Source: Alphaproteobacteria bacterium (GTDB lineage: Bacteria > Pseudomonadota > Alphaproteobacteria > UBA6615). From it: DNA of 64,000 bases. The notes below the pieces were generated by a model that saw only the letters and a list, made by a program, of their open reading frames with translations, was not told the DNA's origin and did not search any database. This document shows, one piece after another, positions 9,545-39,869 of the stretch. The DNA lies in the NCBI GenBank assembly GCA_021774575.1, contig JAJFIX010000023.1, positions 4,166-68,165 of the forward strand, written 5' to 3'. Positions within the stretch are counted from its first letter, which is position 1; the number at the start of each line of letters is the position of its first letter. The position numbers and the translations under genes are program-made.

Positions 9545-9778
9545 TTCGAATTTGTTATTATCACTGAGGTGACGAACTGATATTGGGTATCTGAAATAAC
9601 AGAATACCCAGCAAGGGCTGATCGATGGCAGCCAGCGAGAGCCGCCTCGGCACCAGGGGACATTACCCCATAATTTAGTTGCTGAGAAAGCGCAAATTAG
9701 GGAAAATCGTTGCTATTAGGTCACAAATGGACCTGAAGTGCTGTGGATAGATGTGCTCTGGTTTTCGGGAGGCGGCGG

Positions 9779-10576
9779 TTATCCTGCGATTTCATCGATT
9801 AAGGCCGGGATTGATCCTCCCACTTGCCGTAAGATTTCGGCAAATTCCGCGCGTTGGGTCAGCAGGAAACTGCGCCCAGCAAAGGTTGCATCAAGTATGC
9901 GCAATTTGCCGTCGGTGGTAACCACGGACCACAAGACCTCGCCCTGGACGTCTGCGGATGAAAACAAGGACCTTACTTCAATGAGCGTGTCGGTCCGCTC
10001 CACCGCATCGACCTGACGTGCCGAAACAACCTCGATTCGGCCGTTCGGCGGAAATCCCTCAATGAGTTGCTTGGCCAGAAAACCGCCCAGGATTGCTCTA
10101 AATTGATCGCGTTCTCCCTCGTCGGCCTTGTTCCAGGCGCGGCCGAGGACGATCCGACTAATTTCCTGGGTAGCGAACTTTTGGTCGAAGAGATCACTGA
10201 AAAATTGACGCAATAGAGCCGGGCTGTTGGTTTGGTCGTTAAGCGCCGTAATGCTCGTCTGGGCGAGGTCGTTGATAAATTCTGGGGCTAGAGCAATAGA
10301 ATCCTGGCCATTCTGCGCCAATTGCAAAGGGGTGGCGGAGTTGATGGATCGCATATGTTCGGGCGACGATGGTGGGCCGGCCGCTAAGGGGGGCGTTACC
10401 AATGCTGCAGTTATTGCGATTAAAATACCTGCTCCGGCCGCAGTCCTCACAGAACTTGCGAGCAGGGATACGAAATATTTAGCCAACAGATTATTAGGAT
10501 ATTTCACTGAGCACCTATTCGTTAATGTTTTCGATTTTGCCGAAACGGCGAAAATTTGGAATTTAAAAATATTCAT
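9779..10576 (-). CDS. MlaC/Ttg2D-family periplasmic lipid-binding protein, paralog 2
   Basis: Contains LGRAWNKADEGERDQFRAILGGFLAKQL and ILDATFAGRSFLLTQRAEFAEILRQVGGSIPALIDEI, with a hydrophobic N-terminal signal/anchor. Confidence 0.75.
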   Translation of the reverse strand: MNIFKFQIFAVSAKSKTLTNRCSVKYPNNLLAKYFVSLLASSVRTAAGAGILIAITAALVTPPLAAGPPSSPEHMRSINSATPLQLAQNGQDSIALAPEFINDLAQTSITALNDQTNSPALLRQFFSDLFDQKFATQEISRIVLGRAWNKADEGERDQFRAILGGFLAKQLIEGFPPNGRIEVVSARQVDAVERTDTLIEVRSLFSSADVQGEVLWSVVTTDGKLRILDATFAGRSFLLTQRAEFAEILRQVGGSIPALIDEIAG

Positions 10577-10606
10577 GCTGGCGCGAATGGCGCAGCTGTT
10601 TTGCGG

Positions 10607-11341
10607 CTAACGCCCCAATGTTTCAATGAGTCCATCCAAAGATCCTCCATTGCGTTGGAGAATGCGGTCAAAATCTCCCTTTTGCCCGAGAAGAAAGCTC
10701 GTCCGGGCAAAGGTAATATCAAGTATTTTCATTTCACCATCGACCGTTGCCACGATCCATGGAACTCTGGCGGAAAAATTTTGGCCGACAAAAACGGTCA
10801 CTACTTCGGTCTGCGGTAAGCCGAGCTCCGATTGTCCGGCCAGGGAGGCGCCGCGTACCTGAAAGCGACCATCGGGCACCCGGTCAATGATGACGTCGGC
10901 CAAGTGGATCGCCAGCACATCAAGAAAGGCGTCGCGCTGCTCTATCGATGCCGTTGACCAGATGCGACCGAGGACCGCCTGGCCGATTTGCTCCGACGCA
11001 AAAGCCGAGGAAAAAATTTGGCGAAATATCTCATGGGCCAATTGCCGACTTGTCTGGGCTTGGGTCAACGCGGCAAGACCCGCATCGATCACGGTGTCGA
11101 CGAAAATTGACGCGACATTGGTCGGGTCATCTGGCGCCTGAAAAATCCAGCGCGGCCCAATCGGTGTCGCGTTTTGGTTCGCAATTGGGCGAGCGGTCTC
11201 GGCAAAGCCAATGCTTGAAGTGAAAATTGCCACAGCTAGGCAAAATGCCAAACTCGCACCCGCTGTCGCAACAGGGCCGAAGGACACGAGAATTGCCGCG
11301 CCTGCGCGCCTAATTGAGTTATGTATAAATACTGTATTCAC
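10607..11341 (-). CDS. MlaC/Ttg2D-family periplasmic lipid-binding protein, paralog 3
   Basis: Contains LGRIWSTASIEQRDAFLDVLAIHLADVI and ILDITFARTSFLLGQKGDFDRILQRNGGSLDGLIETL, with an N-terminal signal/anchor. Confidence 0.75.
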   Translation of the reverse strand: MNTVFIHNSIRRAGAAILVSFGPVATAGASLAFCLAVAIFTSSIGFAETARPIANQNATPIGPRWIFQAPDDPTNVASIFVDTVIDAGLAALTQAQTSRQLAHEIFRQIFSSAFASEQIGQAVLGRIWSTASIEQRDAFLDVLAIHLADVIIDRVPDGRFQVRGASLAGQSELGLPQTEVVTVFVGQNFSARVPWIVATVDGEMKILDITFARTSFLLGQKGDFDRILQRNGGSLDGLIETLGR

Positions 11342-11685: not shown

Positions 11686-11842
11686 GTTTTTCTTCCAAAA
11701 TTCCAATAAAGACCATGATTAGGCGGAATAAACGGTAAAATGTTGATGCATGTCAATGTTCCACCCGTATTCGGTCACTACTTTTCAATTATCAATATTG
11801 CCATTGTTCTCTGTTCGAGAGCGCTCCAAAAAGGAGATCCCA

Positions 11843-13240
11843 ATGACCCCTAAACTATCAAAACTTTTTCGACTCGTTATTGCCCCGGCGGCTCTGTCTG
11901 TTGCGCTCATGGTTCAGCCGGTGGCCGGATCGTTTGCGCAATCCGACGGCCCCGGCGATGGTTGGACAACGCCGCTTGCCGAGCAACTCGGTGTTCGATT
12001 GGTCCAACGGTTCGATTCCTCGGGTGAAGATGCCTGGGATCCGCTAGCCCATCCCAACGTCTTTATTACAACCGAGGGGCCCGGATATGGCGGCCTGTTA
12101 AGTGGTGTCACCCAGCCGGGTATCGCTATTATTGACTCCGATACCCGTGAAGTTGTGGCTCATCAGAGCTATGACGTTCTCGCCCTTGGCTGGGAAAATG
12201 TGTTCGAACCCCACGGGCTCGGCGTTTCTCCTGACGGGCAATGGATTTATCTGCCAAGTGGCGAGGGATCCTTTTCCTCGGTCGGCAAAGGTCGGTTGCT
12301 GGTCATTAACGCGCGCACACTGAAACTGGACAAAATTTTAGGACTGCGCGGTCAACCCCATCACGCCAAATCCTTCACGATGCCGGACGGAACGGGCCTT
12401 GCCTATGTTTATGGCTGGGGCCAACCGATGTTTGCGATGGACCCCAGTGATGATAATCGCGTTGTCGGGGGATTGGATTTCAATGCAATGGGTATCGAGG
12501 GATATCTATATTTTGCCTCCCCCGAGGGCGACGAGATCATTGCCAGTGGGCGTTTTCGACGCGGTGTAGCGAGAAATGAGTTACATGGCAATGTGATGGT
12601 TCGCATCGATACGTCTGACTGGAGCTTGATTGACTATGTTCCAGTTGCTGACAGCACCCCTGTCTGGGTCTCTTTTAGCGCAGACGGCGAGAATGCGTAT
12701 TTCAGCGGTGGTCACTCTAGCCTCGTATTCAAATACGACCGGATCGGGGACGAGGTGACGTCGCACGCACGCGCTGGCGTTGAAGGTCCGTACGGTGTGC
12801 ATTTAGGTTGGGATGACACCTTCCTTTATGCGGTTGGCAAGGGCGAAGGATCCCACAATCGCGGTAAAGTATTGGGGCTTATCAATACCGATCTGATGGA
12901 TAGGTCAACCCGGCCAATGGATCAGTTTACGACAAACTGCTTGCGTGGCGATCACGGCACGCTTCATCCTGATCCGGATGCGAATGAGTTGTGGATTACC
13001 TGCAATTCGAGCTTTGAAATTGTGGTTTTTGACCTCGACCGTAACGAAGTCTCAGCCAGAATTCCGATGCCGAACGGTGGTAGCACTCACTCCGGCTCTT
13101 TCCTTCAATATGCAGGCTGGAATGGCGAAGTCGTCGCCGACCAGAACGGGCTTCAAGGCAGCGCACTTACCCTGAAGCGCCAACTGCTCGGGTTGGAGGG
13201 TGCCGAAACGGTGCCCGCCGATGAGCTAGTGGGCGACTAA
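11843..13240 (+). CDS. secreted beta-propeller protein with recurrent blade histidines; function unknown, possible metallo(copper)-oxidoreductase
   Basis: The ATG at 11843 is preceded by AAGGAG. Sec signal MTPKLSKLFRLVIAPAALSVALMVQPVAGSFA. Repeated propeller-like segments carry His (EPHGLGVSPDGQWIY, QPHHAKSF, GGHSSLVF, YGVHLGWDD, GDHGTLHPDPDANELW, GGSTHSGSF). The coding call is solid and the functional call is speculative. Confidence 0.7.
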   Translation: MTPKLSKLFRLVIAPAALSVALMVQPVAGSFAQSDGPGDGWTTPLAEQLGVRLVQRFDSSGEDAWDPLAHPNVFITTEGPGYGGLLSGVTQPGIAIIDSDTREVVAHQSYDVLALGWENVFEPHGLGVSPDGQWIYLPSGEGSFSSVGKGRLLVINARTLKLDKILGLRGQPHHAKSFTMPDGTGLAYVYGWGQPMFAMDPSDDNRVVGGLDFNAMGIEGYLYFASPEGDEIIASGRFRRGVARNELHGNVMVRIDTSDWSLIDYVPVADSTPVWVSFSADGENAYFSGGHSSLVFKYDRIGDEVTSHARAGVEGPYGVHLGWDDTFLYAVGKGEGSHNRGKVLGLINTDLMDRSTRPMDQFTTNCLRGDHGTLHPDPDANELWITCNSSFEIVVFDLDRNEVSARIPMPNGGSTHSGSFLQYAGWNGEVVADQNGLQGSALTLKRQLLGLEGAETVPADELVGD

Positions 13241-13283
13241 CGGATCGGCGACGGTAGGAGATACCGTCACCAACACGTCAGAA

Positions 13284-13306
13284 GGGGGATAGCCCCGCTA
13301 TCCCCC
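13284..13306 (+). terminator. strong stem-loop (attenuator or partial terminator) after the first operon gene
   Basis: GGGGGATAGC-CCC-GCTATCCCCC forms a 10-bp perfect stem 44 nt after the stop at 13240. There is no clear U-tract (gcctcttc). Confidence 0.4.
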
Positions 13307-13344
13307 GCCTCTTCAAACCACTGCCCAATTCAGAATTTAGCAAA

Positions 13345-14616
13345 ATGTTTGCGCGACGAATGACCAAGGAGATGGCTGTGCTGAACAAACTGAAATCGAA
13401 TGCCGGATTAGGTGTCATTGCCGGAGCGGCCATTTGCACCACTGCAATTTTCCTTGTTGTTTCAAGCAGCGCCCAATCCCAAGCGCCTGCGATCAGCGAC
13501 GCGTCGCCGCAAGTTGAAAACGGCCGGGACATATTTATGACAGCGGGGGGCGTTGGTTGTGCAGCCTGTCACGGAATTTTTGGTGAAGGCGATGTCGGCA
13601 TCGGCCCTTATGCGCGCGGTGTGAATAGGGCGTCGATCGACGCGGCGCTAGAATCCATTGCCGAAATGTCCTTCCTTCGAAGTTCGGTACGCGGCCAATC
13701 CATCGACGATATTGCTGCCTATACGGAGTGGCTCGGCAATCATCAACTGGTAAAGACCCTCGCCAAGCGCGGCCGTTTTATTCCCGACAGCGTATCCGTC
13801 CGTCCAAACACATTGATCCAGCTGGTTATATCTAATGCCAGCCGGTTTCCCCGCACCTTTGCCAGTGACGATATGGGTATCGGTGAGATTTCCGTGGATG
13901 GACGTGAGGTCGCAGAAATTATCTGGACGTCGCCTAGTGAGGAGGGAACTTTCACCCTACGTTGCTTGGATTGCCGGATTACCGATCAGCAACTTTCTAT
14001 CCAAATTTCGAATGACGCTGCGCCCTTCACCCCCGTTTCTGGGCCACCGGTTGAGGTGGCGAATACGCCTGCACCAGCCGTTCAGACAGCGGCGGATTTG
14101 GACTTGATCGACCGCGGTCGAGATATTTTTCTCAATGCCGGTGAGGTGGGGTGCACGGCCTGTCATGGCTCTTACGCCGAAGGCGATGTTGGAATTGGTC
14201 CTTATAATAGAGGCCTCGATGAAGACGATATTCGTCTGGCGTTGGCTAATGTCGATGCGATGCGTTTCCTGCAGCAACAACTAGACGATGAACAAATTCA
14301 TCAAGTCGCTGCCTATTACGGATGGCTGGGTGATCACCAGCTTTTCAAAACGCGCATGATCCGTGGGCAATTCTTTCCGAATAGAATTCGGGTGGCGCCG
14401 GGGGCGGCTATTCAGTTGGCGATTACCAATCGCGCTCGTTCCCCTGGTGCATTTTTTAGCGCCGACATGGGGATTGAACCCTTCGTTGTCCAAGGTTTGG
14501 AGACGGTCGATTTTTTCTGGACCGCGCCAAGGGTTGAAGCCGAATTCACCCTGCGCTGCGCCGATTGCGCGACATCAGATTGGCTGACCATCGAGACGAC
14601 GCAGGCTGCACGATAG
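13345..14616 (+). CDS. periplasmic di-haem protein: internal duplication of [class-I cytochrome c + cupredoxin-like beta-sandwich]
   Basis: Two CxxCH motifs (CAACH at 13558-13572, CTACH at 14152-14166) lie exactly 594 nt (198 aa) apart. Each is followed by FxPxxxxVxPxxxIQLxIxN ... FTLRCxDC. N-terminal signal/anchor present. Start is uncertain between 13345 and 13378. Confidence 0.8.
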   Translation: MFARRMTKEMAVLNKLKSNAGLGVIAGAAICTTAIFLVVSSSAQSQAPAISDASPQVENGRDIFMTAGGVGCAACHGIFGEGDVGIGPYARGVNRASIDAALESIAEMSFLRSSVRGQSIDDIAAYTEWLGNHQLVKTLAKRGRFIPDSVSVRPNTLIQLVISNASRFPRTFASDDMGIGEISVDGREVAEIIWTSPSEEGTFTLRCLDCRITDQQLSIQISNDAAPFTPVSGPPVEVANTPAPAVQTAADLDLIDRGRDIFLNAGEVGCTACHGSYAEGDVGIGPYNRGLDEDDIRLALANVDAMRFLQQQLDDEQIHQVAAYYGWLGDHQLFKTRMIRGQFFPNRIRVAPGAAIQLAITNRARSPGAFFSADMGIEPFVVQGLETVDFFWTAPRVEAEFTLRCADCATSDWLTIETTQAAR

Positions 14617-14635
14617 GGCAGGAAAGGGAAAAGCT

Positions 14636-16063
14636 ATGACAAATTTGAATGTCGCCAACCGCCCGTCCTTCAAGCCCGTCCGAAGAACTTGGGCCGCTGT
14701 GGGCCGATCCTGGGGAGGGTCGCATCCCCGGCTGGTCGCAATTTTTTCCTTACTTGCCGCTCTCGTCGTCTCGTCTGCTTGGCTAGCATTTCCCTATATT
14801 CTTGAAGGCCGTGGGCTCATTGCCGATGTCGGCGACACGGTGCAGACCGAGCGCCGCGACCGCGCGACTACGGTCGGGCAGCTGCTCACCCGTTATGCCG
14901 ATGGGCTGGGCGGGGCGGAAATCGACATGCTCTACGCGACACCGCGTTTTTTCGAAATCGCGGGGCAAGCCTCAAGCTATGATCAATACCGGCCCGATCA
15001 ATACATTGTGTTTATGATTAATGAGACGACCCATATCGAGGACCTGCCGCAACAGTTGCCCGAGGCGACCTTGATCGTCGATGGAAAGACGTATCAACCG
15101 GTCGATATTGAAGGGCCCATTGATGTCGTTCACCATCGATCCTCAACGGTTCGTTTTGCCGCGATTGACGCCAATGGCCAGCCGATTATTCCTGCCGATA
15201 CAAGCGAAATTGAACTCAGCCTTGTCGGCGATTGGGGCGACGCCGGGATGCCACGTACCGCATCATGGGATTTGCCGATCGATTATGCCGAGACCTATGA
15301 CGCAGGAATTTGGACACCTGTGATGGTTTTTGCCCTTGCGGCGGGCTTGTTGTCGGCAGTTTTGACCCCGTGTTTGCTGCAATTGCTGGCGGTTTATTTT
15401 GTCACCCTTGTTGGAGTTTCGGCTGAGAGTGGTGGTGGTAGTGGCAGTGCTTCTGCCTCCGGCCCTGGGGGCCGAAAAATGTTATATGCAGCGCTGGCGT
15501 TTGTGGCCGGTTTTACAGTTCTCTACACGGTTGCGGGTGCCGCGATCGGCTATGCCGGCAAGGAAATGCAGATATTGTCTGCCGAATGGAGCCGTCACGT
15601 TGGCATTGCGTCGGGACTTTTGATCATTGCAATGGCAATTTGGTTCGGTATCAGGTCGCGGGCACCGATGGTCTGTAAAATCCCGTTGCCCGGCGCGGTT
15701 GCTCGGTTTGACAAACGCGGCGTCATCGGCTCGGCGCTCGTCGCCGCCGGTTTTTCGCTGGGCTGCATGACATGCTTTAGCGGTGCGATTGTCGCGACCC
15801 TCCTCGTCTATGTCGGTGCGTTGGGGAGTGCCTCAATCGGAGCACTGGTTCTCTTCCTGTTCTCGATCGGTGTTGGAATTCCGTTCTTGGCCGGAGCGCT
15901 GTTCCTGTCCCGAGCCACTCGGGCAATGGCATGGGTGTCGAAATTTTCGCCCCAGATCGGTTTCGTTTCGATGGTGCTGATGGCTGGGTTCGGCGTGCTC
16001 CTGATTACCGATAATTTTCACGAAGTGAGCAATCTCATTTACCCATGGCTCGGTTTGGGGTGA
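14636..16063 (+). CDS. membrane protein: N-terminal anchor + ~190-aa periplasmic domain + CcdA/DsbD-like (cytochrome c biogenesis transmembrane region) domain
   Basis: The C-terminal half is polytopic with membrane-embedded Cys (AVLTPCLLQLL and SLGCMTCFSG), as in thiol-disulfide or metal transporters of the CcdA/DsbD family. RBS GGAAAGGGAAAAG. Confidence 0.7.
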   Translation: MTNLNVANRPSFKPVRRTWAAVGRSWGGSHPRLVAIFSLLAALVVSSAWLAFPYILEGRGLIADVGDTVQTERRDRATTVGQLLTRYADGLGGAEIDMLYATPRFFEIAGQASSYDQYRPDQYIVFMINETTHIEDLPQQLPEATLIVDGKTYQPVDIEGPIDVVHHRSSTVRFAAIDANGQPIIPADTSEIELSLVGDWGDAGMPRTASWDLPIDYAETYDAGIWTPVMVFALAAGLLSAVLTPCLLQLLAVYFVTLVGVSAESGGGSGSASASGPGGRKMLYAALAFVAGFTVLYTVAGAAIGYAGKEMQILSAEWSRHVGIASGLLIIAMAIWFGIRSRAPMVCKIPLPGAVARFDKRGVIGSALVAAGFSLGCMTCFSGAIVATLLVYVGALGSASIGALVLFLFSIGVGIPFLAGALFLSRATRAMAWVSKFSPQIGFVSMVLMAGFGVLLITDNFHEVSNLIYPWLGLG

Positions 16064-16105
16064 ACCGGAATGCTGGTTGATTGGTTCCAATTTGGAGGTA
16101 GGAAA

Positions 16106-16447
16106 ATGAAAAAACTTTTGATCCATGCGGCTTTGGCATTCTTTGTCCTGACGCCGGTTGTCCTGGCGTCAGGGGCAGCAAATGCGGCCGAGCGCGATAT
16201 CACGTTGACTGTTCTCATGACTTGCCCGACGTCCGAACCACCGTTGGTCCGAAAAACGCTGCTTGACGTCAATGGCGTGAGCGAGGTCGCGGTATCCTAT
16301 TCAGACAAAAATGCATATGTGATTTTCGATGATGCGGTGACGAATGAAATGGAACTGATTGCCGCGATTAATGAGATTGGGCTGCGGACGTCACGTGATG
16401 AGGATGGGGGGGATATGGAAGCCATGGATGATATGAGCGAAATGTAA
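16106..16447 (+). CDS. secreted HMA-like (heavy-metal-associated fold) protein with degenerate metal motif and Asp/Met-rich tail
   Basis: GGAGG RBS. Signal MKKLLIHAALAFFVLTPVVLASGAANA. MTCPTS replaces the canonical MTCxxC, followed by VNGVSEVAVSYSDKNAYVIFDD (HMA beta-alpha-beta-beta pattern). C-terminus is DEDGGDMEAMDDMSEM. Confidence 0.55.
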   Translation: MKKLLIHAALAFFVLTPVVLASGAANAAERDITLTVLMTCPTSEPPLVRKTLLDVNGVSEVAVSYSDKNAYVIFDDAVTNEMELIAAINEIGLRTSRDEDGGDMEAMDDMSEM

Positions 16448-16490
16448 AAATTGATCGCTCGGGCTTGAGCAAGAGACACGAGGGCAGAAA

Positions 16491-17660
16491 ATGACAAGTT
16501 TCAAATCAATGATGGTCTTAAGCGCCGGATTTCTCCTTTTGGGTACGGCGGTTGCATTCGCTGTGCGAGAACCAAATGTGTCGCTCGCCGTTAGTGATAT
16601 TGAAAAATATGTGTTCGTTCCCAGTTTGGGGTCGGCCGACATTACGGTGATTGACAGTCGGAATAATTCTGTTGTCGGGACGATTGATCTTGACGAAATC
16701 CCGGACCGGTTGGTCGTGTCTTCCGCCGTCGGCCAGCTTATTGTCAGCAATCTAGAAAGTCGCACCGTTACATTGATCGATATAGAGACCGGCGATGAGA
16801 CTGCCGAGATCGCCCTAGATATAACGCCGCAATCCCTGGTCATGAGCCCCGAGGGGTATCTGGTCGCTGTGAGCGATGTTGATGCCGGCGTCGTCGCCGT
16901 GATTTCGTTGCACCGTGGCGTTGAAGTTTCGAGGATAGACAATCTTTCGGCGCCCTCTGGGTTAACTTTCAGCGATGATGGGTCGTTACTTTATGTTCCA
17001 GATGGTGCGTCAAATTCGATCAAACTTATCGATATCGTCCAAGGTAGGGCGTTTGGGGAGTTACCACTATCTGCTGGCAACCCTGATGGAGTAGGCGACC
17101 CGGAAATGCTCAGCGCCGTCACCAGAAGTGCCAATGGTCGCTTTGGCTTTTGCGCCATCGGTCATGCCGAGGAGCTTGCCATATTTGATTTTGGAACCGA
17201 GCAACGGGTCAAGACGCTCAAATTGGGTAACCAGCCTTCGCGGCCTTTCGGCACCGCGGATGGGCGATATATTATGGTGGCAAACAACGGTGATCGCACC
17301 GTGTCGATTATTGATACGCAGACCTTTGATATTGCCGCAACGCTGCCCGGGGCCGCCGATGTTACAGCAATTAACACCGGTTGGTTTGAGACCGTGGCCT
17401 TCGTCATCAGCGAAAGTGAGGACAAAGCGATCATCCTCGACCTCATGGATTTACGTAAATCTGGTGAGATTGAATTACCGAGTTCTCCCGGTCCAGGTGT
17501 CGTGACTCCCGACGCAGCGACACTTTATGTTGCGCTTAGCGATACCGATAGCGTCGCGGTGATCGATACACGGTCACGCCGGGTGACGGCAATTATCGAT
17601 AATGTAGGAACCCAGCCGCGAGGCGCGACAATGGCGCGAACGAATAATTATTGCCATTAG
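16491..17660 (+). CDS. secreted YVTN-family beta-propeller repeat protein
   Basis: Signal peptide. Repeated motifs of the type LYVPDGASNSIKLIDI, IMVANNGDRTVSIIDTQT and LYVALSDTDSVAVIDTRS. Confidence 0.8.
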   Translation: MTSFKSMMVLSAGFLLLGTAVAFAVREPNVSLAVSDIEKYVFVPSLGSADITVIDSRNNSVVGTIDLDEIPDRLVVSSAVGQLIVSNLESRTVTLIDIETGDETAEIALDITPQSLVMSPEGYLVAVSDVDAGVVAVISLHRGVEVSRIDNLSAPSGLTFSDDGSLLYVPDGASNSIKLIDIVQGRAFGELPLSAGNPDGVGDPEMLSAVTRSANGRFGFCAIGHAEELAIFDFGTEQRVKTLKLGNQPSRPFGTADGRYIMVANNGDRTVSIIDTQTFDIAATLPGAADVTAINTGWFETVAFVISESEDKAIILDLMDLRKSGEIELPSSPGPGVVTPDAATLYVALSDTDSVAVIDTRSRRVTAIIDNVGTQPRGATMARTNNYCH

Positions 17661-17704
17661 GCCCGACACCCTAGGTCAGCAACAAACTCGGGAGGTTGTG
17701 CAAA

Positions 17705-18361
17705 ATGAAAGAAAATTTTCGCCTTGGAATATATGGCAGCCTGGGACTGCTGCTTTGCGCCGCTACCGTAGCCGCCCTGTTGCTGATTAATAATCGCTTG
17801 GCGCCTGAAATCTCGGATCCGCCGCTTGAAATTGATGCGGCAATTATCGACCCAGGGGGACCATTTGCACTGGTCGATCATCAAGGAAAATCGGTAACCG
17901 ACCGTGATTTTCTCGGTCGATATCTACTGGTTAATTTTGGTTATACATTCTGTCCCGACATTTGCCCCACGACGCTCGGCCAAATTACCGTCGCGATGGA
18001 CCTGCTCGGTGAGAATGCGAACAAGGTTCAACCCGTGTTTATCACCGTCGATCCGGAGCGGGACTCAATTGAAGTTTTGGCCCGCTATATGAATTTTTTT
18101 CACCCTCAATTGATCGGCTTGACCGGCTCATCCGACCAGATCGCCAATGTCGCCCGGGTCTATATGGTTCACTACGCCCAGGCCGAGAGGGTCGAAGAGG
18201 CAAGCTATTATTCGGTCGATCACAGTAGCTTCATATACCTCATGGGGCCGGAAGGAGAATTTAGGGACGTCATTGCTTATGGAACTCTACCGCAGGAAAT
18301 GGCGTCGCTCATTGAGCGCCATATTTCAAACGATAGCTCGGCGTCCGGGGACGGCCAGTAA
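17705..18361 (+). CDS. SCO1/SenC family copper chaperone / thiol-disulfide oxidoreductase
   Basis: N-terminal TM anchor, CPDICP motif (FGYTFCPDICPTT), and a conserved downstream His (VDHSSFIYLMGPEG). GGGAGG RBS lies before the ATG at 17705. Confidence 0.9.
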   Translation: MKENFRLGIYGSLGLLLCAATVAALLLINNRLAPEISDPPLEIDAAIIDPGGPFALVDHQGKSVTDRDFLGRYLLVNFGYTFCPDICPTTLGQITVAMDLLGENANKVQPVFITVDPERDSIEVLARYMNFFHPQLIGLTGSSDQIANVARVYMVHYAQAERVEEASYYSVDHSSFIYLMGPEGEFRDVIAYGTLPQEMASLIERHISNDSSASGDGQ

Positions 18362-18414
18362 GGGGAAAGCCAGATAGCCGGATAACCGGGGTAACGAAGA
18401 TTGGAGGTAAATCC

Positions 18415-19194
18415 ATGCCAATGAAAAAGCAAAAAGATCCACTTTGCGGCATGATACTTCATGCAGAGCGTGGCAAATGCGCTTCCTGCGAAGTTCGGGC
18501 ACTCTCAATCTGCGCGCCTCTGGATCGGTCCGCTCTGGAAGTGCTGGCTGACTTGTCGGAGGTGGTAAATTTTAGGAAGGGTGACAGTATCTGCGCCGAA
18601 GGCGATCCGGTGGATTATTTTTTTACCGTGCAGTCCGGGGCACTGAAGACGTGTCGGTTACAGTCGGGGCGCCGTGACCTTGTGACCGGCTTTTTGTTTG
18701 GCGGAGATTTCCTCGGCCTGGCATTCTTTGCCGGGCAAATTGAGGCGGATACTCATTACCCATATGCCGTCAGGGCCTTAAGCAAGGGCCGCCTGTGTCG
18801 GCTGCCAAGACAGGCATTTTCCAAATTCATTGCCGATTATCCGCTTATTGAGAAACAAATTTTGGCAAAAATTTCGTTGAAACTGGAGCAGGCGGAAAAT
18901 CATATCCTGTTGCTTGGCAGAAAGAATGCGCGAGAAAAAATCTCTTCTTTCATTTTGCAACTTGATGACGCGCAGAGATTTGCTCGTCAAAATCTGGAGA
19001 GTGATTTTCAAGGTGTCGATACCGTTGATTTTCCTTTGGCGCGCCATGATATTGCCGATTACCTGGGAATGACTCCCGAAACAGTCAGCCGTGCCTTAAC
19101 TCAGCTGAAGGAAGACGGCTTGATCCGGCAACTCAGCTCACGCTGTGTTGCGCTCGTCCAGCGACAAATGTTGGAAGAGATAGCCGCAGGGTAG
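18415..19194 (+). CDS. Crp/Fnr-family transcriptional regulator, FnrN/FnrL-type with N-terminal Cys cluster
   Basis: N-terminal C11, C22-x2-C25-x7-C33 plus central Cys residues. Contains a cNMP-binding-like beta-roll. C-terminal HTH HDIADYLGMTPETVSRALTQLKEDG carries the E--SR motif used by FNR to read TTGAT half-sites. Confidence 0.9.
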   Translation: MPMKKQKDPLCGMILHAERGKCASCEVRALSICAPLDRSALEVLADLSEVVNFRKGDSICAEGDPVDYFFTVQSGALKTCRLQSGRRDLVTGFLFGGDFLGLAFFAGQIEADTHYPYAVRALSKGRLCRLPRQAFSKFIADYPLIEKQILAKISLKLEQAENHILLLGRKNAREKISSFILQLDDAQRFARQNLESDFQGVDTVDFPLARHDIADYLGMTPETVSRALTQLKEDGLIRQLSSRCVALVQRQMLEEIAAG

Positions 19195-19275: not shown

Positions 19276-19641
19276 TTATTGAGTGGCTAGAAATTCAACA
19301 ATGTCGGCGGCGTCTTGGGCATCTCCGACGCCGGGAAAGGCCATGCTGGTGTCGGGTACGAGTACTTGAGCCTCGGCAATGTACAGCAATAGCGTCTCTT
19401 CATCCCAGGTGAGACCAGATCCTTTCATCGCGTCGGAATATTCGAAATCGGCGAGGTCGGCCGCGGGTCGTCCGATAACACCGGCCAGGCTCGGCCCGAT
19501 GATATTTTCGCCAGCCGTCAAAGAATGGCACGCAGCGCAGACCTGAAACAGGTCTTCACCCCGCGCGGCGTCTTGGGCCAGTATAGGCGTTCCGCTCGCC
19601 AGCACTATTGCGGTCGCCATTATTGATATTGTTGCTTTCAT
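19276..19641 (-). CDS. class I c-type cytochrome (c2/c550-like), secreted
   Basis: Signal MKATISIMATAIVLASGTPILA, haem motif CAACHSL, and a distal Met region (DTSMAFPGV). RBS GGAAGGAA. Confidence 0.9.
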   Translation of the reverse strand: MKATISIMATAIVLASGTPILAQDAARGEDLFQVCAACHSLTAGENIIGPSLAGVIGRPAADLADFEYSDAMKGSGLTWDEETLLLYIAEAQVLVPDTSMAFPGVGDAQDAADIVEFLATQ

Positions 19642-19760
19642 AGCCGATTCCTTCCGTCATTCAGTCATTCAGTTGAGTAAGAACGAATAATCGGCATAAA
19701 AGCCGCCGACTTGGCATGCGACCGATTGTATGCAAGGTAGCTAATTGGTGCTGATTTTCC

Positions 19761-19774
19761 ATGATCTATGTCAG
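19761..19774. promoter_or_regulatory. weak FNR-like half-conserved site ATGATCTATGTCAG
   Basis: Matches 7 of 10 positions of TTGAT-N4-ATCAA, about 120 bp upstream of the cytochrome c start. Low confidence. Confidence 0.25.
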
Positions 19775-19902
19775 CATTCCAGTTGATTAGGAAGCTAAGG
19801 CAGCTCCTTTAGTGGCCGTCTCGATGGATCTATCGCGGGAAAACGATGGTCCGAATCGACTAGATGGCGTGGTTTTGGAAAAACGACTCTAACCGCCCCT
19901 CC

Positions 19903-20329
19903 CTATCCACAGATTTAGGGGCTCGATAAGTAAATTATCCATAGGGACGGTGACCCGGTATTTGGATCGTATCTATTTTTACGTACCGCGTGGAGATGCC
20001 GCTGTTCAAATTCGGGAAATTGCCCCTGTGGACAAATACGAATTTGTGTACAGGTTTTGGTAGTCATGTCGGGTTATCCACAGAGGTGGCGCCTATTTGC
20101 AACACCCAAATGAACTATTCCATATAATTCGGTCGAGCTATAGATTTGTTGGGCCCGTGAGTTGGTGCAACTACAAGACCGACTGAACTGTCCTAAGACC
20201 GTTGTGCAGTCTGAACTTTATGAAGGTTTTTCAATTCAATTTACGTCGCTGGAACGGCTCAAAAGTGGCCCAATTTGGGGGTCGGTTATCGAGCCGATTG
20301 CCTGTGGAAAAAACATGGTTTCATCCACA
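19903..20329. promoter_or_regulatory. cluster of six DnaA-box-like 9-mers (one perfect TTATCCACA)
   Basis: Sites: CTATCCACA 19903-19911 (+); TTATCCATA 19935-19943 (+); TGTGGACAA 20027-20035 (-, TTGTCCACA); TTATCCACA 20074-20082 (+, perfect); TGTGGAAAA 20303-20311 (-, TTTTCCACA); TCATCCACA 20321-20329 (+). All fall in an approximately 0.8-kb non-coding stretch. Confidence 0.5.
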
Positions 20330-20531
20330 GGGCTGTGTACTGTTCTGAGTTGTGGCGAGACCGTGGCTTGGACATCGGGGGAATCAATGAATATCGAAAC
20401 ACTGCCTTCAGCGGCAGTGTGCTGCTCTTGGCAAGGTATAACCTGTCGGGGTTGCGCAAATGTGGGGGCGTGCTTTGGACGATAACCGTTTTCGATCGCG
20501 GTTATTTGGCCGGCCGTTTTCTTGCCGATTA

Positions 20532-23500
20532 ATGCAATACAGAAATGACGGGCCTTCGAGGTCATTTCTGCATTTGGCTGCAGTCGCGCTCTTTTCTGCG
20601 TCACTTTTGGGCTTTGGCGGAGATGCTGTTGCGCAGAGCGTGGATTGGGTGCTCAACCTCAACGACACCGGCTCCGATCCGACCGCCGCCGGTGGAACCA
20701 TCACCTACAATATCAACGTTTCCAATAACGGGGCCGACCCAGCACCAGTGACGACGATCGATCTCGACGTGCCCGCAGGGACAACGCTCGCGGCGACGAG
20801 CGGGACGATCACCGGGTGCGCACCGGTCCCGACTGCCGGGCCTGCCACCGTTACCTGTACGATTCCGGCATTGGCGGCGGGGGGGGCTGTCGATCTGTCA
20901 GCCGATGTCGTTCCGGTCGCTTCGGGAACTGTGACCATCGGCGCGCACGTGCCGACCACCGTGGGCGCAGTAACCGATTTCGATACGGCTAACAACGATC
21001 AAACTGAAAACACGACGATTACCGCAGGGGCGGATGTCGAATTGCTGATTTCCGGGCCAGCCACAGCGGCTTCGGGCAGCCAGATTAGTTACAGCTTTGA
21101 TGCAACCAATAACGGCCCCGATCCGGCGTCAAACCTGACCCTGAGTTTTCCTATACCGACGGGGGTTTCCAACATCACCGAACCGCCGGGCTGTTCCCTG
21201 TCTGCGAGCACCTATACTTGTGCGGTCTCAGGGCCTCTCGCGCCGGGTGCCAGTGTCTCGCTGGTTTTTGACGTTCAGATTTCCGCTGCCTCCGGGTCGA
21301 CGGTGACGCCGGTCGCAACTATCTCCGTCGGCTCGCCAGTTGATCCGCTGGCCAGCAACAACACCGACAGTCTCGACACAGATATCACAGCGGGAACCGA
21401 TCTTCGTATCACCAAATCGCGGAGCCCATCGGGCACGCTTCTGGTTGGCGATACCGTAACCTTCACCCTTGCTGGAAGCTACACCGGTGACGACCCCAGC
21501 GGGATCACAATAACCGACACCATCCCGGCAATCTACGCCATCCAATCGGTTACGCCGTCTGCCGGTAGCGGGTTTGCCTGCACCGTGACCTTGCAGGATA
21601 TTTCCTGCTTGCGGGCGACAGGTGCTGGTCCGGGGGGCAATGTTTCCTTGGGCTCTATCTCCATTGTGGCAACAGCCATAACGGCAGGATCGGCTGTTAA
21701 TACAGCGACCATCGTCGCGACAGGCCCTGTTGATTCAAACCTCTCAAACAATAGCGACACCGACGGCGGTGCGACAATCCAAGATCCAACTGTCGATCTG
21801 CGGGCGAACAAGTCCGGTCCAAATCCGCCGCTCATTGTTGACGGCAATAGTTATGATTTTTCGATCAGCGCTACCAATATCGGCAATGCAGATTTTTTCG
21901 GTACGATCGTTCTAACCGATAGTCTGCCGGCGGGGTTGACGGCGACCGGATTTGTCTTGAACGGATGGACTTGCGCGCCGGTTCCCGCAGCAGTGTTGCC
22001 CATTGCGGGCCCAGCGGTGATTGAATGCACGCAAATTTTTACCTCCGGAAGTCCACTCGCCTCCGGTGCGACGACTTCGAGTGCCGTTATACAGACGACG
22101 GCCACTGCGTCGGGAACCATCACCAACAGTGTCACGGTCTCTTCCCCCGATGCAAATATTGCAGACAGCAATTCTGGCAATGACGTTGCGACCACGACCG
22201 TTACCGGCAGCACACTCGGCGCCTCGGCCGATATTCTCGTCGAGAAGACGGCTAGCCTTGCCACACTGCCGGCAGGCGATGTGCAGACCTTTACCCTTCG
22301 TGTGGTCAATAACGGTCCCATCGCTTCAGCCAACATTACTCTCACCGACAGTCTGTCCGGATTGATCAACAATTCGGTGGGGCCGACCGGTGCTGGGTTG
22401 ATCAGCGTCGACGACACTTCGTCGGTAGGGTTGGCTACGGGGCTGACATGTTCCACCGCCTCGTCGGGGGGCAGCTCTCGCCTCTTGACCTGTACCATCG
22501 TGAATTTGCCGGTCTGTGTGGGCGCCGACTGCCCGATCATCACTGTGCAAGTTCGCCCCGGCGGCAATGGCGGTTCGCGGACCAACACAGCCGACGCTAT
22601 TTCTTCGGTCACCGTCGATTCCGATCTGACGAATAATTCGGCCAGCGCTACTTTCACAGTAGAGCCCCGCGCCGATATGACCGTGACCAAGGTCTCGTCG
22701 CCGTCTCCGGCTACCGCCGGGCAAGATCTGACCTATGTTCTCACCGCGCGAAATATCAGCAATGGTCTCAGTGCTGCAGCGAGTGTGACGATAACCGATA
22801 CGCTGCCGAACAATGTAACTTTTGTCTCCGCATCGCCCTCGGCTGGGAGCTGCACGACCACGCCGATACTCAATTCGACGACCGGTGCTGGCAACAATAC
22901 GGTGAGCTGTTCTCTTGGCACGATCAATAACGGCGCCCAGCGGACGGTGACGATTGTCACGCGGCCGAACTTCGTGACCCGCGGCACCACTCTTTCCAAC
23001 AATGTGACCGTTGCCACGACGACGATCGAGACCGATGGCACCAACAATTCGGCGATCAATCTGACCCCGGTTGTGGTTCCTGTGCTCGACCTTCTGGTAA
23101 ACAAGACCGATAGCGTCGACCCTGTCGCGGTTGGGGATGACACGGTCTTTTCTATTTCGGTGCAGAATATTGGCCCATCGGCGGCTGAAAACGTCGTTTT
23201 TACCGATGTTATGCCGCCGTCTCGGCTGAGCTTCCAATCTGTCATCGTCTCAGCGGGGGGGAGCTGCCTAACGGTTCCTGCGGTCGACAGCTTCGGGCAA
23301 ACCCTTGAATGCGACTTTCCGCGGCTTCTTGCGGGCACCTCGGAGACAATAACGGTCACCATGCGGGGCACCGAAAAGGGTACAGTATTCAACACAGCCG
23401 ATGTGACGTCCGATGAGGTTGTCGCCGGATTTGATACCAACACCACCAACAATAATGTAATGGAGCAGACGACGGTCCGTTCCAAGGCAGACCCCGAAGT

Positions 23501-26500
23501 AGTGAGCAAAGTGGCTTCGGTTAATCCGGTCAATTTGCGCGACAATTTCAATTTTGTCATTACGGTTCGCAACAATTCCGGTGCGGGTCTGGCTGAAGCT
23601 GATGATGTCCTGGTTTCCGACACGCTACCGACGGGTATGGTTTTGACGGGGCCGCCAACCGTCACAGCCGGGCTGGCCAATGTCACAGGCTCAACCTGTA
23701 CTGGGCTTGCCGGTGAGACGTCGTTTACGTGCGACCTTGGGACATTTACCGGAGGAGGAACGGCGGAAATCACCGTGCCGGTCGAAATTACCTCGGTGAG
23801 CTCTAACCCGCAGACTATTGTTAACACGGCGTCGATCACGACCTCATCGCTTGATGTCAATTCGGCGAACAATACGAACTCGGGTTCGGTCGATGTGAAC
23901 TCTTCGTCAATCTCTGGCAGCCTCTTTCGCGATTTTACGGACGACGGTGCGATCACGGCTGGAGACACCGGGATCGGCGCTGTGACGATGACGCTCACCG
24001 GTACCAGTGCCGATGGCGCCGCAATTTCGCGGACCGTTGCGACGGCAGCCGATGGGACATTCACATTTGCCCTGCTGCCCGAGGGCAACTATACGATTAC
24101 ACGCGGCACACCTTCGGAGCCTAATCTGGTAGACGGGACCGACACGCCGGGGACTGCCGGCGGAACAGTCAGCGCGCCGATCACGATCGCCGGTATCTCG
24201 CTGGGCGGGAATACGGCCGCAGCGAATTATCTCTTTGCGCTGATCCCCCAGGCCTCTATCGGCATTGCCAAGACAGTGCAGTCGGGGCCGACACCCAATG
24301 CAGACGGGTCTTACAATGTTACTTTCCGGCTGACCGTCGAAAATTTGAGCCTTGAGGCCTTGGAGAACATTGTAGTGGACGACGCCCTTGCCGGCGCGTC
24401 CCCTTTGTTTGGGGCCTTCAGTGCCCTGGCAACCCCGGCGACGGATCCGCTGGCGCGCGGGAGTTACACCATCCTGGCGGCACCTTCGGGAAGTTGCGGC
24501 GGTTTGCAAGCTGGGTTCGACGGTAACGCCGCACAAACAGTGGCCACCGGTTTTGGGCTAGCCATCGGCGCCACCTGCACCATCGACCTGATACTTCGTG
24601 TGCAACCCAGTGTTCCGTTCCCGCCGGTTCTGGCCTCGGGCGGGCGGTACGAGAACCAAGCCACCGTCGATGGGCAAGGCGCTGTCACCGGCCAAACTTC
24701 GGCCACCAACGCGCAACTTGCCGACAGTTCAGATAATGGCGTCAACCCCGATCCAAACAGTAATAGCCAGGCCAACGAAGCGGGCGAGAACGATCCGACG
24801 CCGGTTGATCCGGTCTATGTGCGGTCCGTCGGATTGGTGAAGACGGTCGATACCGGCGCCCTTTCAACACCGGCGGTCGCAGGCGATATTTTGACCTTTG
24901 GCTTCACGGTGACCAATACCGGTGACGTGACGTTAACCGGTCTGACACTAGCGGATCCGCTGCCCGGCATTTCGGTCTCGGGCGGGCCGATTGCGAGCCT
25001 GACACCGGGCGCGTCGGACAGCCTAACCTTTACCGCGACCTATACGCTCACCCAGGCCGATGTCGACGCCGGGCAGGTGGTGAACCAGGCCACGGTTTCC
25101 GGTATTGATCCATTTGACGGGACGGTGACCGATCCATCGGGTACGACGACCACCAATGACACGCCCCTGACGACGACGCTTACGCCGGGACCGGCGATTG
25201 GGCTGGTTAAGACCGCCAATGCTTCGGGGCTTTCAAGCCCGTCGGTTGTTGGAGAGCGGATCACCTATTCGTTCGCCGTCACCAATACGGGCAATGTGAC
25301 GCTGTCGAATGTAACGCTAACCGATATCCTGCCGGGGATCGTAATCTCGGGCGGTCCAATCGCAACGCTGGCGCCGGGTGCGACCGACGCTACGACTTTC
25401 ACCGCGACCTACGACATCCTGCAATCGGATATCGACGCGGGCCAAGTATCGAACCAAGCAACCGCGACCGGCTCGCCTCCATTTGGCGCGGATGTAAACG
25501 ATTTATCGGGCACGACGACAGGCAACGATACGCCAACCGTCTCGTCGGTCACCCAGGCCCCGGCGATTGATCTTCAAAAGACGGCCGATGACAGCGCCTT
25601 TCTGGTGACCAGCGCGGTACCCGGCGACACCTTGCCCTTTACTTTCCAGGTTACCAATATCGGCAACACGACTCTAACCGGTATCACGATAACAGATCCG
25701 TTGCCGGGGATTGTCATCACCGGTGGACCGATTGCAAGTCTCGCGCCCGGGGCGACGGATAGCACTACGATTTCTGGCAGTTACTCGATCACTGCCGCCG
25801 ACATCCTCGCGGGGCAAATAGATAATACGGCGACAACGACCGGCACCTACACAGACTCCGGCGGTAGTCCCCAGACCGTGACCGACACCGATAGTGCGAC
25901 AGGTATTGTCGTTGCCATCGACGCCAACCCGGAAATCTTTCCGCCATTCACCACCGATGGCGGCACGACGACATCAATGCTTGCCTCCGATAGCGTGGCC
26001 AACCAGCCGGCGACCCTGGCGAATGTGACGATTTCGGTCGTCACCACTGACCCGGAATTGACCCTTGATCCGGCAACGGGACTGATCACGCTCGCTCCTG
26101 GAAATCCGGCAGGTGAGTATTTCGTGACGTATCAGATTTGCTCGACTGCCAGTCCAGCGGTTTGCGACACGGCGATCGAAACCGTGACCCAGAGTGCGAT
26201 CCCCTCGATTGAAGCCACGAAAACGCAAGTCTTGACCGACAATGGCGATGGAATCGACGGCGTTGGCGACACGCTCACCTATACGATCACCGTGGAGAAT
26301 ACCGGCAATGTTCCGGTCGAAAACATTGCCCTGACCGACACGCTCACCACGCTCAACACCGGCTTTGGATTAACGCTCGACGGCGGTCCGACTTTCGTCT
26401 CCGCAAGTTCCGGGTCCCTCGAAGGTGATCTGGCGATTGGCGAAACGGCCACCTATACGGCAAGTTTCACGCTGACTATTGATGCCTTAATCGGTGGTGG

Positions 26501-29500
26501 CACGTCGAACACAATAACTGTCGACGCCTTGCCGGTTTTTGGCCCGGCCGTGCCGGGCACGCCGGCGCCGATCCTCGATGTTTCCGATGACGGCGACGAT
26601 GGCGATGGAAATACGACCGAAGATCCCACCCAATTCCCGATCGCGTCTTCACTGGCCGCGAGCGGGCTCACGGTGACAAAGACCACCCCACGAGGGATCG
26701 TCGAACGGGGGCAGATCGTGCCGTATACGATTGCCATCCGGAACGACAATCCGGTCGTTTCGGGCCAGCTCGATATCGTTGATGTTTTGCCGCCGGGGTT
26801 CCTCTACTTGGATGGATCGGCAACCCTAGACGGCACGCCATTCTCGGTCGATGTTGCTGGACGGGTCGTCACTTGGCCCGACGTGCCGGTGCCGCCCCTT
26901 ACCACCGTCACGGCGACCTTATCGGCCCGCATCACCACCGGTGCGCCGTCCGGCGAATTGGTCAACCGGGCGAGTGCGCGCAATCCGAACGACAATACCC
27001 CCCTCGCGCCGGTCGCCACCGCGACGGTCCGCATTCTTCCCGAGGCGGTCTTTGATTGTGGCGACGTGATCGGCAAAGTGTTCGATGATCGTGATCGCGA
27101 CGGTTATCAGAACCCGGATAGGTCGGAGCCGGGTATCCCGGGTGTTCGGTTGGTGGGGATTGACGGCACGACAATTGTGACCGATGAGTTCGGCCGGTTT
27201 CACGTGCCCTGTGCGATGCTGCCGGATGATCGCGGCACAAATTTCATTTTGAAAATCGACCCCCATTCATTGCCCGCCGGTTATGGGATGACGTCGGAAA
27301 ATCCGCGGATCGTCCGGTTGACTCGCGGCAAACTGACGGAAATGAACTTTGGCGCGACGGCCGAAAACATTGTGCGCATCGATCAGAACGCCCGTGTTTT
27401 TGTGCCCCAATTTGGTGGGCAATTCGACCTCATTGCGGCGCGCCCAGTCGGGCTTTCGGCCTTGGTCGACCAGATCGCGCTGGACCCACAACGCCCGACC
27501 GAAATTCGCGCGATGGCGGCCGGTATTGATATTCGGTTCGACACCCTGGACGAACGCCGCTTCCTGAATGTCACGACTATGGGTCTTCGCGCCGCCTACC
27601 GGGCCGGCGAGACGGTCATATTTCGGACCTCGTCCAATTATCCGCGCTTTATTGTTCGATCTGAAATCCGCATCCGCGATCGGTCCCACCGACGGCTGAT
27701 TGCCGTATTGCCGGTACTGCCGAATGGCCAAATGCCATGGATGGTCCCCCAAAGTGGGACGGGCGAATTCGATTATGTGTTGCGGGTCTATGACGGGCGG
27801 GGGCGTTACGATGAAACCGAGCCGCTTTCCCTGGTGCGCACGGCCCGTTCTTTTAACACCCATGAAACGGTGCGTGGTGCCGCCATAGCGCCGGGCGAGG
27901 GCGAGGATCGTACTGCCATTCGCAACATACCGATCCGGGGTGGTCTGGTGACGGCGGCGGGAGAAGGTTTGGCCCCGGGCACCCGCGTCTTGGTTATGAG
28001 TGAGGAAGTGACCGTCGATCTTTCCGGTCGATTTGTGGTCAGCCGGATCTTGCCGGTTGGGGAGCATGAGGTCGCCGTCGATGTTGCCCATGCCGGTCAG
28101 GTATCGCGGGTCGTGCGCAACATCGAAGTTCCGGCGCTGACAGCATTCAGTGTCGGGATCGTCGATTTGACCATCGGCAAGCAGCTTGAGAACGACCTGG
28201 CCGATGCGGATCCAGATTATGATGATACCTATGCTGAAGGAAGGCTGGGCTATTACGGCACTGCGATTCTTCCCGACGGCACCCGTGTCACCATGTCGGT
28301 CGATACCGGGAACGGCTCGCTCAAAGACGCGTTCCGCCGTCTCGACGACCGGGATCCGCGTGACGTTCTCCAACGGCTCGACGAGGACGATCTCTATCCG
28401 ACATATGGTGACGATAGCACCGCATATGACGATGCGCCGACGTCGGGACGGGCATATTTTCAGATCGAACGTGGCGGGGCCAGATTAACCTGGGGCGATT
28501 TCCAATCGGCGATTGCCGGGCCGGAATTTCTGGCCGGAAAGCGAAATTTATACGGCGTGGACCTGAATTATACGTCACCCGTGGTCACGACCCGTGGCGA
28601 TGCCCGCGCTCAATTATCCGCTTACTTCGCCCAACCCGATACGTTGCCGGCACGGGACATAATGCGGGGCACCGGCGGTTCGGTGTATTTTTTATCACGC
28701 CAAGATATCAATAATGGTTCGGAAACGGTGACAGTGCAGATCCGGGATCCGCAAACAGGGCGCATCATTTCGACGACAACATTGGTGGCGGACCTCGATT
28801 ATGACATCAATAATATTCAAGGCGTCATTGTCCTGGCGGCGCCACTGGCTTCGTCGACGACTGACGGCGGATTGATATCGTCGGGTGTCGTTGGAGAATT
28901 CGACGTCAACCTGGTGGTTCAATATGAATATACGCCGACGGCTGGCGACTTGGATGGCGCCTCGGGTGCCGGACGGGTCGAGTTATGGGCGCGGAACAAT
29001 TTGCGCCTGGGCATTACCGGCATGCGCGAGAATACCGGCGTGGCCGATCAAGATATGTTCGGTGCCGATCTGCGCTGGAACCTTGGCGAGACAAGCTATG
29101 TTGAGACAGAGTTTGCGCAGACGGTTGGCCCCGGCTTTGGGCGCACGCTCTCGGCCAATGGCGGGCTGACCCTGGATATGACGGGGCCGGGAACCGGCAC
29201 GCGCGCCGACGCGCTCCGGGTCGATGGTCATCTCAATTTCGCCGAATTAAATTTCGGGCTGGAAGGGCATCTGGATTTCTACTACGAGCGCAAGGACGCT
29301 GGATTTGCCACGTTAAACGAGGATATTGCCGAAGACCGAGAGTTGGTCGGCCTCTCTTCGGAGTTGGCGCTTTCACCCCGATTGCGACTTGGCATCGATG
29401 TCGAAGATTTCCAGAAGCAAGGGCGCGAGCATACGCAGACGAGCGAAGTGCGGGCGTCTTATAGTCTAAACAGAGTTTTGACCCTGTCCGGCGCCGTCGA

Positions 29501-30791: not shown

Positions 30792-30965
30792 TACTCGACG
30801 GAATTGGGGGTGGTGCCCAAATTAGGAGCAAAAGCCATATTGTGGTTAATTATTAGTCATTAATAGGTAGGCTTCACATCAAAATTTCGTTGCAATTTTG
30901 AGTGTAATATAAAATATATAATAAGAACAATGAGTTATATGATTTCTCCCGGGGCAAGAGAAAAC

Positions 30966-39855: not shown

Positions 39856-39869
39856 TTGATGGATTTTTG

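Follow-up and report, generated by a model that had tools for sequence, protein, structure and literature searches.

A long non-coding gap between two divergent genes carries a dense array of six DnaA boxes, which is most likely a lineage-specific, non-origin cluster of predicted high-affinity sites of a kind already known. The array lies in the window, by which we mean the whole 64,000-nucleotide stretch of alphaproteobacterial DNA that was analysed. Our preferred, though tentative, account of its function is that the array would make one or both of the divergent promoters DnaA-responsive and act in addition as a modest DnaA sink.

To our knowledge, the DnaA DNA-binding domain recognises TTATCCACA in essentially all bacteria. 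We defined a box as a 9-mer with at most one mismatch to TTATCCACA and scanned both strands. Within the 427 bp that had been singled out by the first-pass annotation, the scan returned exactly the six sites reported there, all with at most one mismatch, one of them perfect, and distributed over both strands. The features of the locus are the following.

19276-19641, minus strand: c-type cytochrome gene, 121 aa, with a signal peptide; start codon 262 bp from box 1.
19642-20531: non-coding gap between the divergent genes, 890 bp, 46-48% G+C against ~55% overall.
19874-19882, minus strand: possible weak box, TTTTCCAAA, two mismatches; the sole further site with at most two mismatches in the gap.
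19903-19911, plus strand: box 1, CTATCCACA followed by g, one mismatch to TTATCCACA.
19935-19943, plus strand: box 2, TTATCCATA followed by g, one mismatch; same orientation as box 1, 32 bp start to start.
20027-20035, minus strand: box 3, TTGTCCACA followed by ggg on the minus strand, one mismatch; forms inverted repeat I5 with box 4.
20074-20082, plus strand: box 4, TTATCCACA followed by g, perfect consensus; divergent from box 3 at a distance of 38 bp.
20208-20247: modestly A+T-rich, least stable stretch of the gap, 70% A+T over 40 bp, between boxes 4 and 5.
20301-20331: near-palindrome of 31 bp, CCTGTGGAAAAAAC-atg-GTTTCATCCACAGG, made up of the divergent boxes 5 and 6, which are 9 bp apart.
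20303-20311, minus strand: box 5, TTTTCCACA followed by g on the minus strand, one mismatch.
20321-20329, plus strand: box 6, TCATCCACA followed by ggg, one mismatch.
20532-30791, plus strand: gene of a secreted repeat protein of 3,419 aa (the giant gene) with DUF11, DUF7507 and CARDB domains and a signal peptide; start codon 203 bp from box 6.

The boxes follow one another along the gap in the order + + - + - +. The intervals between boxes 1 to 4, the best four adjacent boxes, are 23, 83 and 38 bp, with a mean of ~48 bp. The near-palindrome of boxes 5 and 6 was also recovered by the repeat search as inverted repeat I4, whose 14-nt arms are 86% complementary. Over the whole window we counted 18 boxes against 9.9 expected from dinucleotide shuffles; the earlier estimate of about 14, made with equal base frequencies, is close to these figures. 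The remaining 12 boxes are isolated, scattered singles, as had been noted, although one of the two examples quoted, 39897-39905, belongs at 39899-39907. No 427-bp span held more than three boxes in 1000 dinucleotide shuffles of the window. When the 890-bp gap itself was shuffled 20,000 times, the mean was 0.24 boxes and the maximum four, and the Poisson probability of at least six boxes is 2e-7. The 327 kb of other loci that we compared contain at most two boxes per 500 bp.

The six sites share more than the nonamer. All of them are followed by G and four of them by GG, and this trailing G is found at 6/6 cluster boxes but at only 1/12 scattered boxes (Fisher P = 4e-4). Likewise, five of the seven occurrences of the heptamer TCCACAG in the 64 kb fall in the cluster. 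The extended form of the cluster boxes is TnnTCCAyAG(G), with the strongest conservation at T4-G10 (TCCAyAG) and weaker conservation at box positions 1-3, where T1 is present in 5/6 boxes, T2 in 5/6 and A3 in 4/6. This form equals that of R1 of Escherichia coli, TTATCCACAGGG. An identical scan of verified E. coli sites gave TTATCCACAggg for R1 and TTATCCACAgta for R4 of oriC, and found the trailing g at three datA boxes and at DARS1 box II as well. Since the trailing G also marks verified sites of E. coli, it supports the view that the six sites are real DnaA boxes. At the level of sequence, the trailing-G extension is what high-affinity DnaA sites look like. An unbiased k-mer count revealed no second strongly repeated motif in the gap, and the heptamer GCCGATT as well as a 10-nt and a 21-nt inverted repeat stay at about chance level after multiple testing (rough estimate).

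The only box of the window outside the cluster that has the cluster's extended form is the one at 9742-9750 (CTATCCACAg). It sits in a 234-bp gap upstream of the last of three tandem MlaC-like paralogues (8849-11341, minus strand), ~200 bp from the start codon.

The gap had been described as unusually long and non-coding, and this is borne out. With 890 bp, 19642-20531 exceeds every other gap in the window (median 35 bp), and the candidate open reading frames within it lack the coding GC1>GC2<GC3 pattern. The boxes fill the middle 427 bp and all lie at least 200 bp from either start codon. The right edge of the gap follows from starting the giant gene at ATG 20532, which we chose for its proper signal peptide; with this start, 203 bp from box 6, the region does lie upstream of the giant surface-protein gene, as proposed. 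The gap sequence is identical in two independent Logan assemblies (L001 and L002), and because these agree across the gap the junction is real and not an assembly chimera. There was no Rfam match in the gap even at E<=1, and the RNA folding of the gap flanks was no better than that of shuffled sequences (z-scores 0.12 and -1.0). Neither a sigma-70 consensus promoter nor, by motif search, an FNR site was found in the gap.

Several inverted repeats accompany the boxes. An imperfect 21-nt inverted repeat, I1, is 81% complementary and brackets almost the whole gap (19688-19708 and 20511-20531); each of its arms overlaps a terminator-like hairpin. No target-site duplication was seen at I1, and ~0.05-0.1 such pairs would be expected by chance according to a rough calculation. 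An 8-bp perfect hairpin, ACACTGCC..GGCAGTGT, lies at ~20397-20420, ~115 bp upstream of the giant gene. A 14-nt inverted repeat that is 93% complementary with an 11-nt loop (20536-20574) begins 4 nt past the giant gene's likely ATG and extends to the TTG that another gene caller uses as an alternative start. Either this repeat or the hairpin could have an effect on translation or transcription.

On the left of the cytochrome gene, a plus-strand gene cluster at 11750-19194 is headed by a 496-aa open reading frame that has no Pfam match. It also encodes a cupredoxin/cytochrome c fusion, a DsbD-like membrane protein, HMA-like, beta-propeller and SCO1 proteins, and a Crp/Fnr protein. By its content it looks like a copper/cytochrome maturation or redox module without close relatives (best Crp match 44%). 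Further to the right of the giant gene are urea ABC transporter and urease genes. In this part of the window, 38298-38582 on the minus strand matches Rfam RF02514 (5' ureB sRNA of Helicobacter; 114 bits, E = 2e-29) on the strand opposite the 5' portion of the gene for the urease large subunit. A conserved coding sequence, and not a genuine antisense RNA, is the probable reason for this match. The single 401-aa open reading frame at 39867-41072 on the plus strand combines UreE_N, UreE_C and UreF domains, and appears to be a fused ureE-ureF accessory gene.

The first-pass annotation had offered oriC as one candidate function, and here the evidence goes the other way. A replication origin is accompanied by a sign reversal of skew. 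To the left of the site, the plus-strand GC skew is +0.084 in plus genes, +0.040 in minus genes and +0.108 in intergenic DNA; to the right, the corresponding values are +0.083, +0.016 and +0.091. The replication and coding components of skew were separated by using the third codon positions of genes on each strand. The third-position skew is +0.010 in plus genes and +0.136 in minus genes on the left, and +0.003 and +0.144 on the right, where the compositionally odd giant gene was excluded. The replication-associated component is thus +0.073 on the left and on the right, with no sign change. The plus-strand skew is positive throughout and the cumulative GC skew climbs across the 64-kb window, with a small local maximum, not a minimum, near 20-21 kb that is due to the giant gene. 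Coding-strand bias does not switch at the site either; plus-strand coding amounts to 80% to the left and 76% to the right. From the skew, the replication origin is located somewhere to the left of this site.

The equipment of an origin is likewise missing from the surroundings. Pfam annotation of all main open reading frames in the 64-kb window revealed no dnaA, dnaN, hemE, DUF299, gidA, parAB or plasmid rep genes, which agrees with the absence of dnaA, dnaN, hemE and parAB recorded earlier. A motif search also agreed with the earlier observation that TTAA-N7-TTAA CtrA sites are absent. The gap holds no DnaA-trio runs ((WAR)x4), repeated 13-mers or iterons. No match to the IHF consensus WATCAANNNNTTR was found in 19642-20531 at zero or one mismatch, with the reservation that this consensus is that of E. 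coli and that the nucleoid protein of this lineage may differ. The 40-mer at 20208-20247 has 70% A+T, not much below the 75% of the E. coli DUE measured identically, and contains no repeats or DnaA-trios. Ranked by stability, the 30-mer at 20214 falls in the lowest 0.24% of the window, which has far more extreme stretches. GANTC sites are mildly enriched in the gap (four against 1.3 expected).

The least stable and most A+T-rich 100 bp of the window are found at 30846-30945, in the stretch that separates the giant gene from urtA. They carry one single-mismatch box, TTAACCACA, at 30841-30849.

An origin, whether a chromosomal oriC or that of a secondary replicon, is therefore the least probable of the explanations we considered and hardly to be expected. 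It could draw on the clustering of DnaA boxes within a long piece of non-coding DNA, on the modestly A+T-rich, low-stability stretch between boxes 4 and 5, and on the divergent box orientation, for which R1 and R4 of E. coli oriC offer a parallel. Against these stand the equal skew components and the similar intergenic skews on the two sides, the constant gene-strand bias, and the lack of neighbour or replication genes, DnaA-trios, CtrA sites, an IHF site and iterons. A unidirectional plasmid-type origin leaves the skew unflipped but needs a Rep gene and iterons; because both are absent, this variant is disfavoured as well.

The locus of the cluster has no close relatives. The cytochrome c protein has 100% matches from the same strain only; its next relatives reach at most 56% identity and are paralogues in unrelated contexts. 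The best relative of the Crp/Fnr protein shows 44% identity and no synteny. Homologues of the giant protein were searched with its first 500 residues in genome and metagenome collections. The N-terminal homologues, at 44-58% identity, come mainly from Rhodobacterales MAGs and Aliiroseovarius, with weaker matches at 30-38%. We compared 17 loci of such homologues (11 from genomes and six from metagenomes), which are not all independent, as at least two pairs seem to come from one contig or organism each, and which include two that are only 30% matches; at most one box occurs within 1 kb upstream, and there is no synteny with the window. Because the homologue loci have at most one upstream box, DnaA control is not a conserved trait of the giant-gene family.

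On the other side of the giant gene, the relatives of UrtA show 91, 86 and 84% protein identity, followed by Thalassospira at ~80%. The urt genes of the first three are ~72-80% identical in DNA, and the similarity ends exactly upstream of urtA; the giant gene and the box cluster are absent there. A metagenome scan gave no match to the palindrome of boxes 5 and 6, and a plasmid database compared with 6 kb around the site gave only weak SCO1 matches. By these comparisons the cluster is placed in a lineage-specific, variable region, where conservation would speak neither for nor against function.

The giant DUF11 gene stands out in composition, with a GC skew close to zero (third positions -0.083), whereas the remainder of the window has +0.08. 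This odd skew, together with the occurrence of N-terminal homologues in unrelated gene contexts, suggests that the gene may be mobile or rapidly relocating.

What the boxes might do has to be judged from their number, arrangement and setting. The alternative wording of the first-pass annotation, a titration or regulatory site, stands in so far as a non-origin DnaA-binding site fits all observations; the choice between the two is not narrowed further, there being no close relatives. Control of the flanking promoters remains our tentative preference. The excess of boxes is far beyond chance and their trailing G is that of verified E. coli sites. They occupy a non-coding gap between divergent genes, a setting shared with stable non-origin clusters of Bacillus subtilis (PMC2533591). 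The palindrome of boxes 5 and 6, ~200 bp ahead of the giant-gene ATG, resembles an operator, and the signatures of an origin are absent. This reading has to accommodate the lack of a recognisable sigma-70 consensus promoter and the distance of at least 200 bp between every box and the start codons. Six boxes are also more than an operator typically needs, and the homologous giant-gene loci, with one upstream box at most and no synteny, do not share the arrangement.

A dedicated DnaA-control locus of the datA or box-cluster type, at which post-initiation titration and/or hydrolysis of DnaA-ATP would take place and effects on the neighbours would be incidental, is possible but somewhat unlikely. 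Box number and density match those of E. coli datA under the identical scan, and the central position in a gap of exceptional length, 200 bp or more from both genes, would suit a separate element. In other lineages the cluster does not accompany the giant gene, and its boxes come closer to the consensus than the seven at the Caulobacter origin, which are weak or moderate (PMC6393856). However, datA requires IHF (PMC4585315), and no IHF consensus was found in the gap even at one mismatch. The mean spacing of ~48 bp across the best four boxes is outside the 3.7-21 bp of B. subtilis (PMC2533591), a review of replication control in Caulobacter describes no such locus (PMC6393856), and the cluster is not conserved among the loci compared. 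We are doubtful, to a slightly greater degree, about the narrower proposal of a datA-like sink or inactivation locus that does without a recognisable IHF site in an alphaproteobacterium. Even so, we would regard a datA-like locus as nearly as likely as promoter control, and both can coexist in known systems.

The gap could also hold a relic that has lost its function or is decaying, such as the DnaA boxes left over from the origin of a formerly independent or horizontally acquired element that became fixed in a variable region. Lineage specificity extends to the entire neighbourhood: the UrtA relatives are dissimilar upstream of urtA, and no relative exceeds 56% for cytochrome c or 44% for Crp. 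The imperfect repeat I1, in addition, brackets the gap. We consider a relic unlikely, since all six boxes still have at most one mismatch and a trailing G, which argues for ongoing selection; in addition there is no rep gene, iteron, transposase or target-site duplication, and the bracketing repeat is itself near chance. Less probable again is a different transcription factor whose TCCACAG-centred motif overlaps the DnaA consensus. The peak of conservation at T4-G10 and the dimer-like palindrome of boxes 5 and 6 would suit such a factor, but positions 1-3, although weaker, still fit DnaA usage, and the extended form is the very one of E. coli R1. Moreover, two of the boxes are direct repeats and two pairs are spaced 38 and 9 bp apart, unlike a fixed dimer operator.

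Under promoter control as the preferred reading, DnaA would occupy the six predicted boxes, probably starting at the perfect box 4 and at the palindrome of boxes 5 and 6. The bound array might then render one or both flanking promoters sensitive to how much DnaA the cell contains and in which state, and this response might in turn couple expression of the flanking genes to the replication cycle; we are less certain of these two later steps. As a side effect, at least six DnaA molecules would be kept from the origin.

In E. coli, B. subtilis, Streptomyces and Pseudomonas, clusters of DnaA boxes outside origins tune initiation and make gene expression follow the cell cycle. For alphaproteobacteria, the general view is that HdaA, CtrA and proteolysis take this part. 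If validated, the six-box cluster would extend the principle of non-origin DnaA-box clusters to the alphaproteobacteria. If it controls the giant surface-protein gene, adhesin expression would be tied to replication status. The practical value is limited, as this is a single, unconserved locus of an uncultured organism.

Among the DnaA-box loci that have been studied, the Caulobacter origin Cori is the one from an alphaproteobacterium to compare. It lies beside a duf299 open reading frame and contains hemE promoters, CtrA and IHF sites and seven weak or moderate DnaA boxes (PMC6393856). Our cluster resembles Cori in that its boxes are in a long intergenic region with mildly enriched GANTC sites, but it lacks the duf299 and hemE neighbours and the CtrA and IHF sites, and the skew around it is constant. 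The same review of replication control in Caulobacter mentions no locus of the datA or DARS type (PMC6393856).

In the DARS core, boxes I and II are oppositely oriented and 5 bp apart, and box III is adjacent to box II head-to-tail (PMC6868365). Scanning E. coli DARS1 placed box I at 813107 on the plus strand and boxes II and III at 813121 and 813133 on the minus strand, so that boxes I and II are convergent. The cluster has in common with DARS1 and DARS2 that oppositely oriented boxes are close together. Boxes 5 and 6, in contrast, are divergent (minus, then plus) and 9 bp apart, with no third box of up to two mismatches nearby, so the layout of the DARS core is not found in the cluster.

Greater similarity in number is found with datA, which has five DnaA boxes and whose activity depends absolutely on an IHF site between boxes 2 and 3 (PMC4585315). 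The datA locus lies close to the origin and drives hydrolysis of DnaA-ATP. Under the identical scan, E. coli datA gave four boxes in 250 bp and five in ~900 bp, compared with six in 427 bp for the cluster. Both are non-origin, largely non-coding loci in which about five consensus-like boxes of mixed orientation, mostly with a trailing G, are spread over a few hundred base pairs. They differ in the IHF site, which was not found in the gap with the E. coli consensus (and this may not be the consensus of the host), and in the orientation of the boxes, which are convergent in datA (+ + + - - -) and follow the order + + - + - + here.

Promoters offer a further comparison. Several boxes at the E. 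coli mioC and dnaA promoters make transcription DnaA-responsive (PMC4585315), as do multiple DnaA boxes in the oriCII region upstream of gidA in Pseudomonas aeruginosa (PMC13438810). The cluster, too, consists of multiple boxes upstream of genes. Unlike the cluster, which adjoins a cytochrome c gene and the giant gene, the mioC, dnaA and oriCII sites adjoin an origin or dnaA and overlap mapped promoters.

Finally, the stable DnaA clusters of B. subtilis are strictly intergenic and have four successive boxes that are on average 3.7-21 bp apart, with an A value above 0.3 (PMC2533591). With a mean distance of ~48 bp, our cluster is much less dense than these. It is like the clusters at yqeG-sda, ywlC-ywlB and yydA-yycS in being intergenic and in having several boxes with at most one mismatch. 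Several of the stable non-origin clusters of B. subtilis regulate neighbouring genes (PMC2533591), and the B. subtilis clusters combine regulatory and DnaA-sink roles beside genes that they possibly regulate (PMC2533591; PMC4585315).
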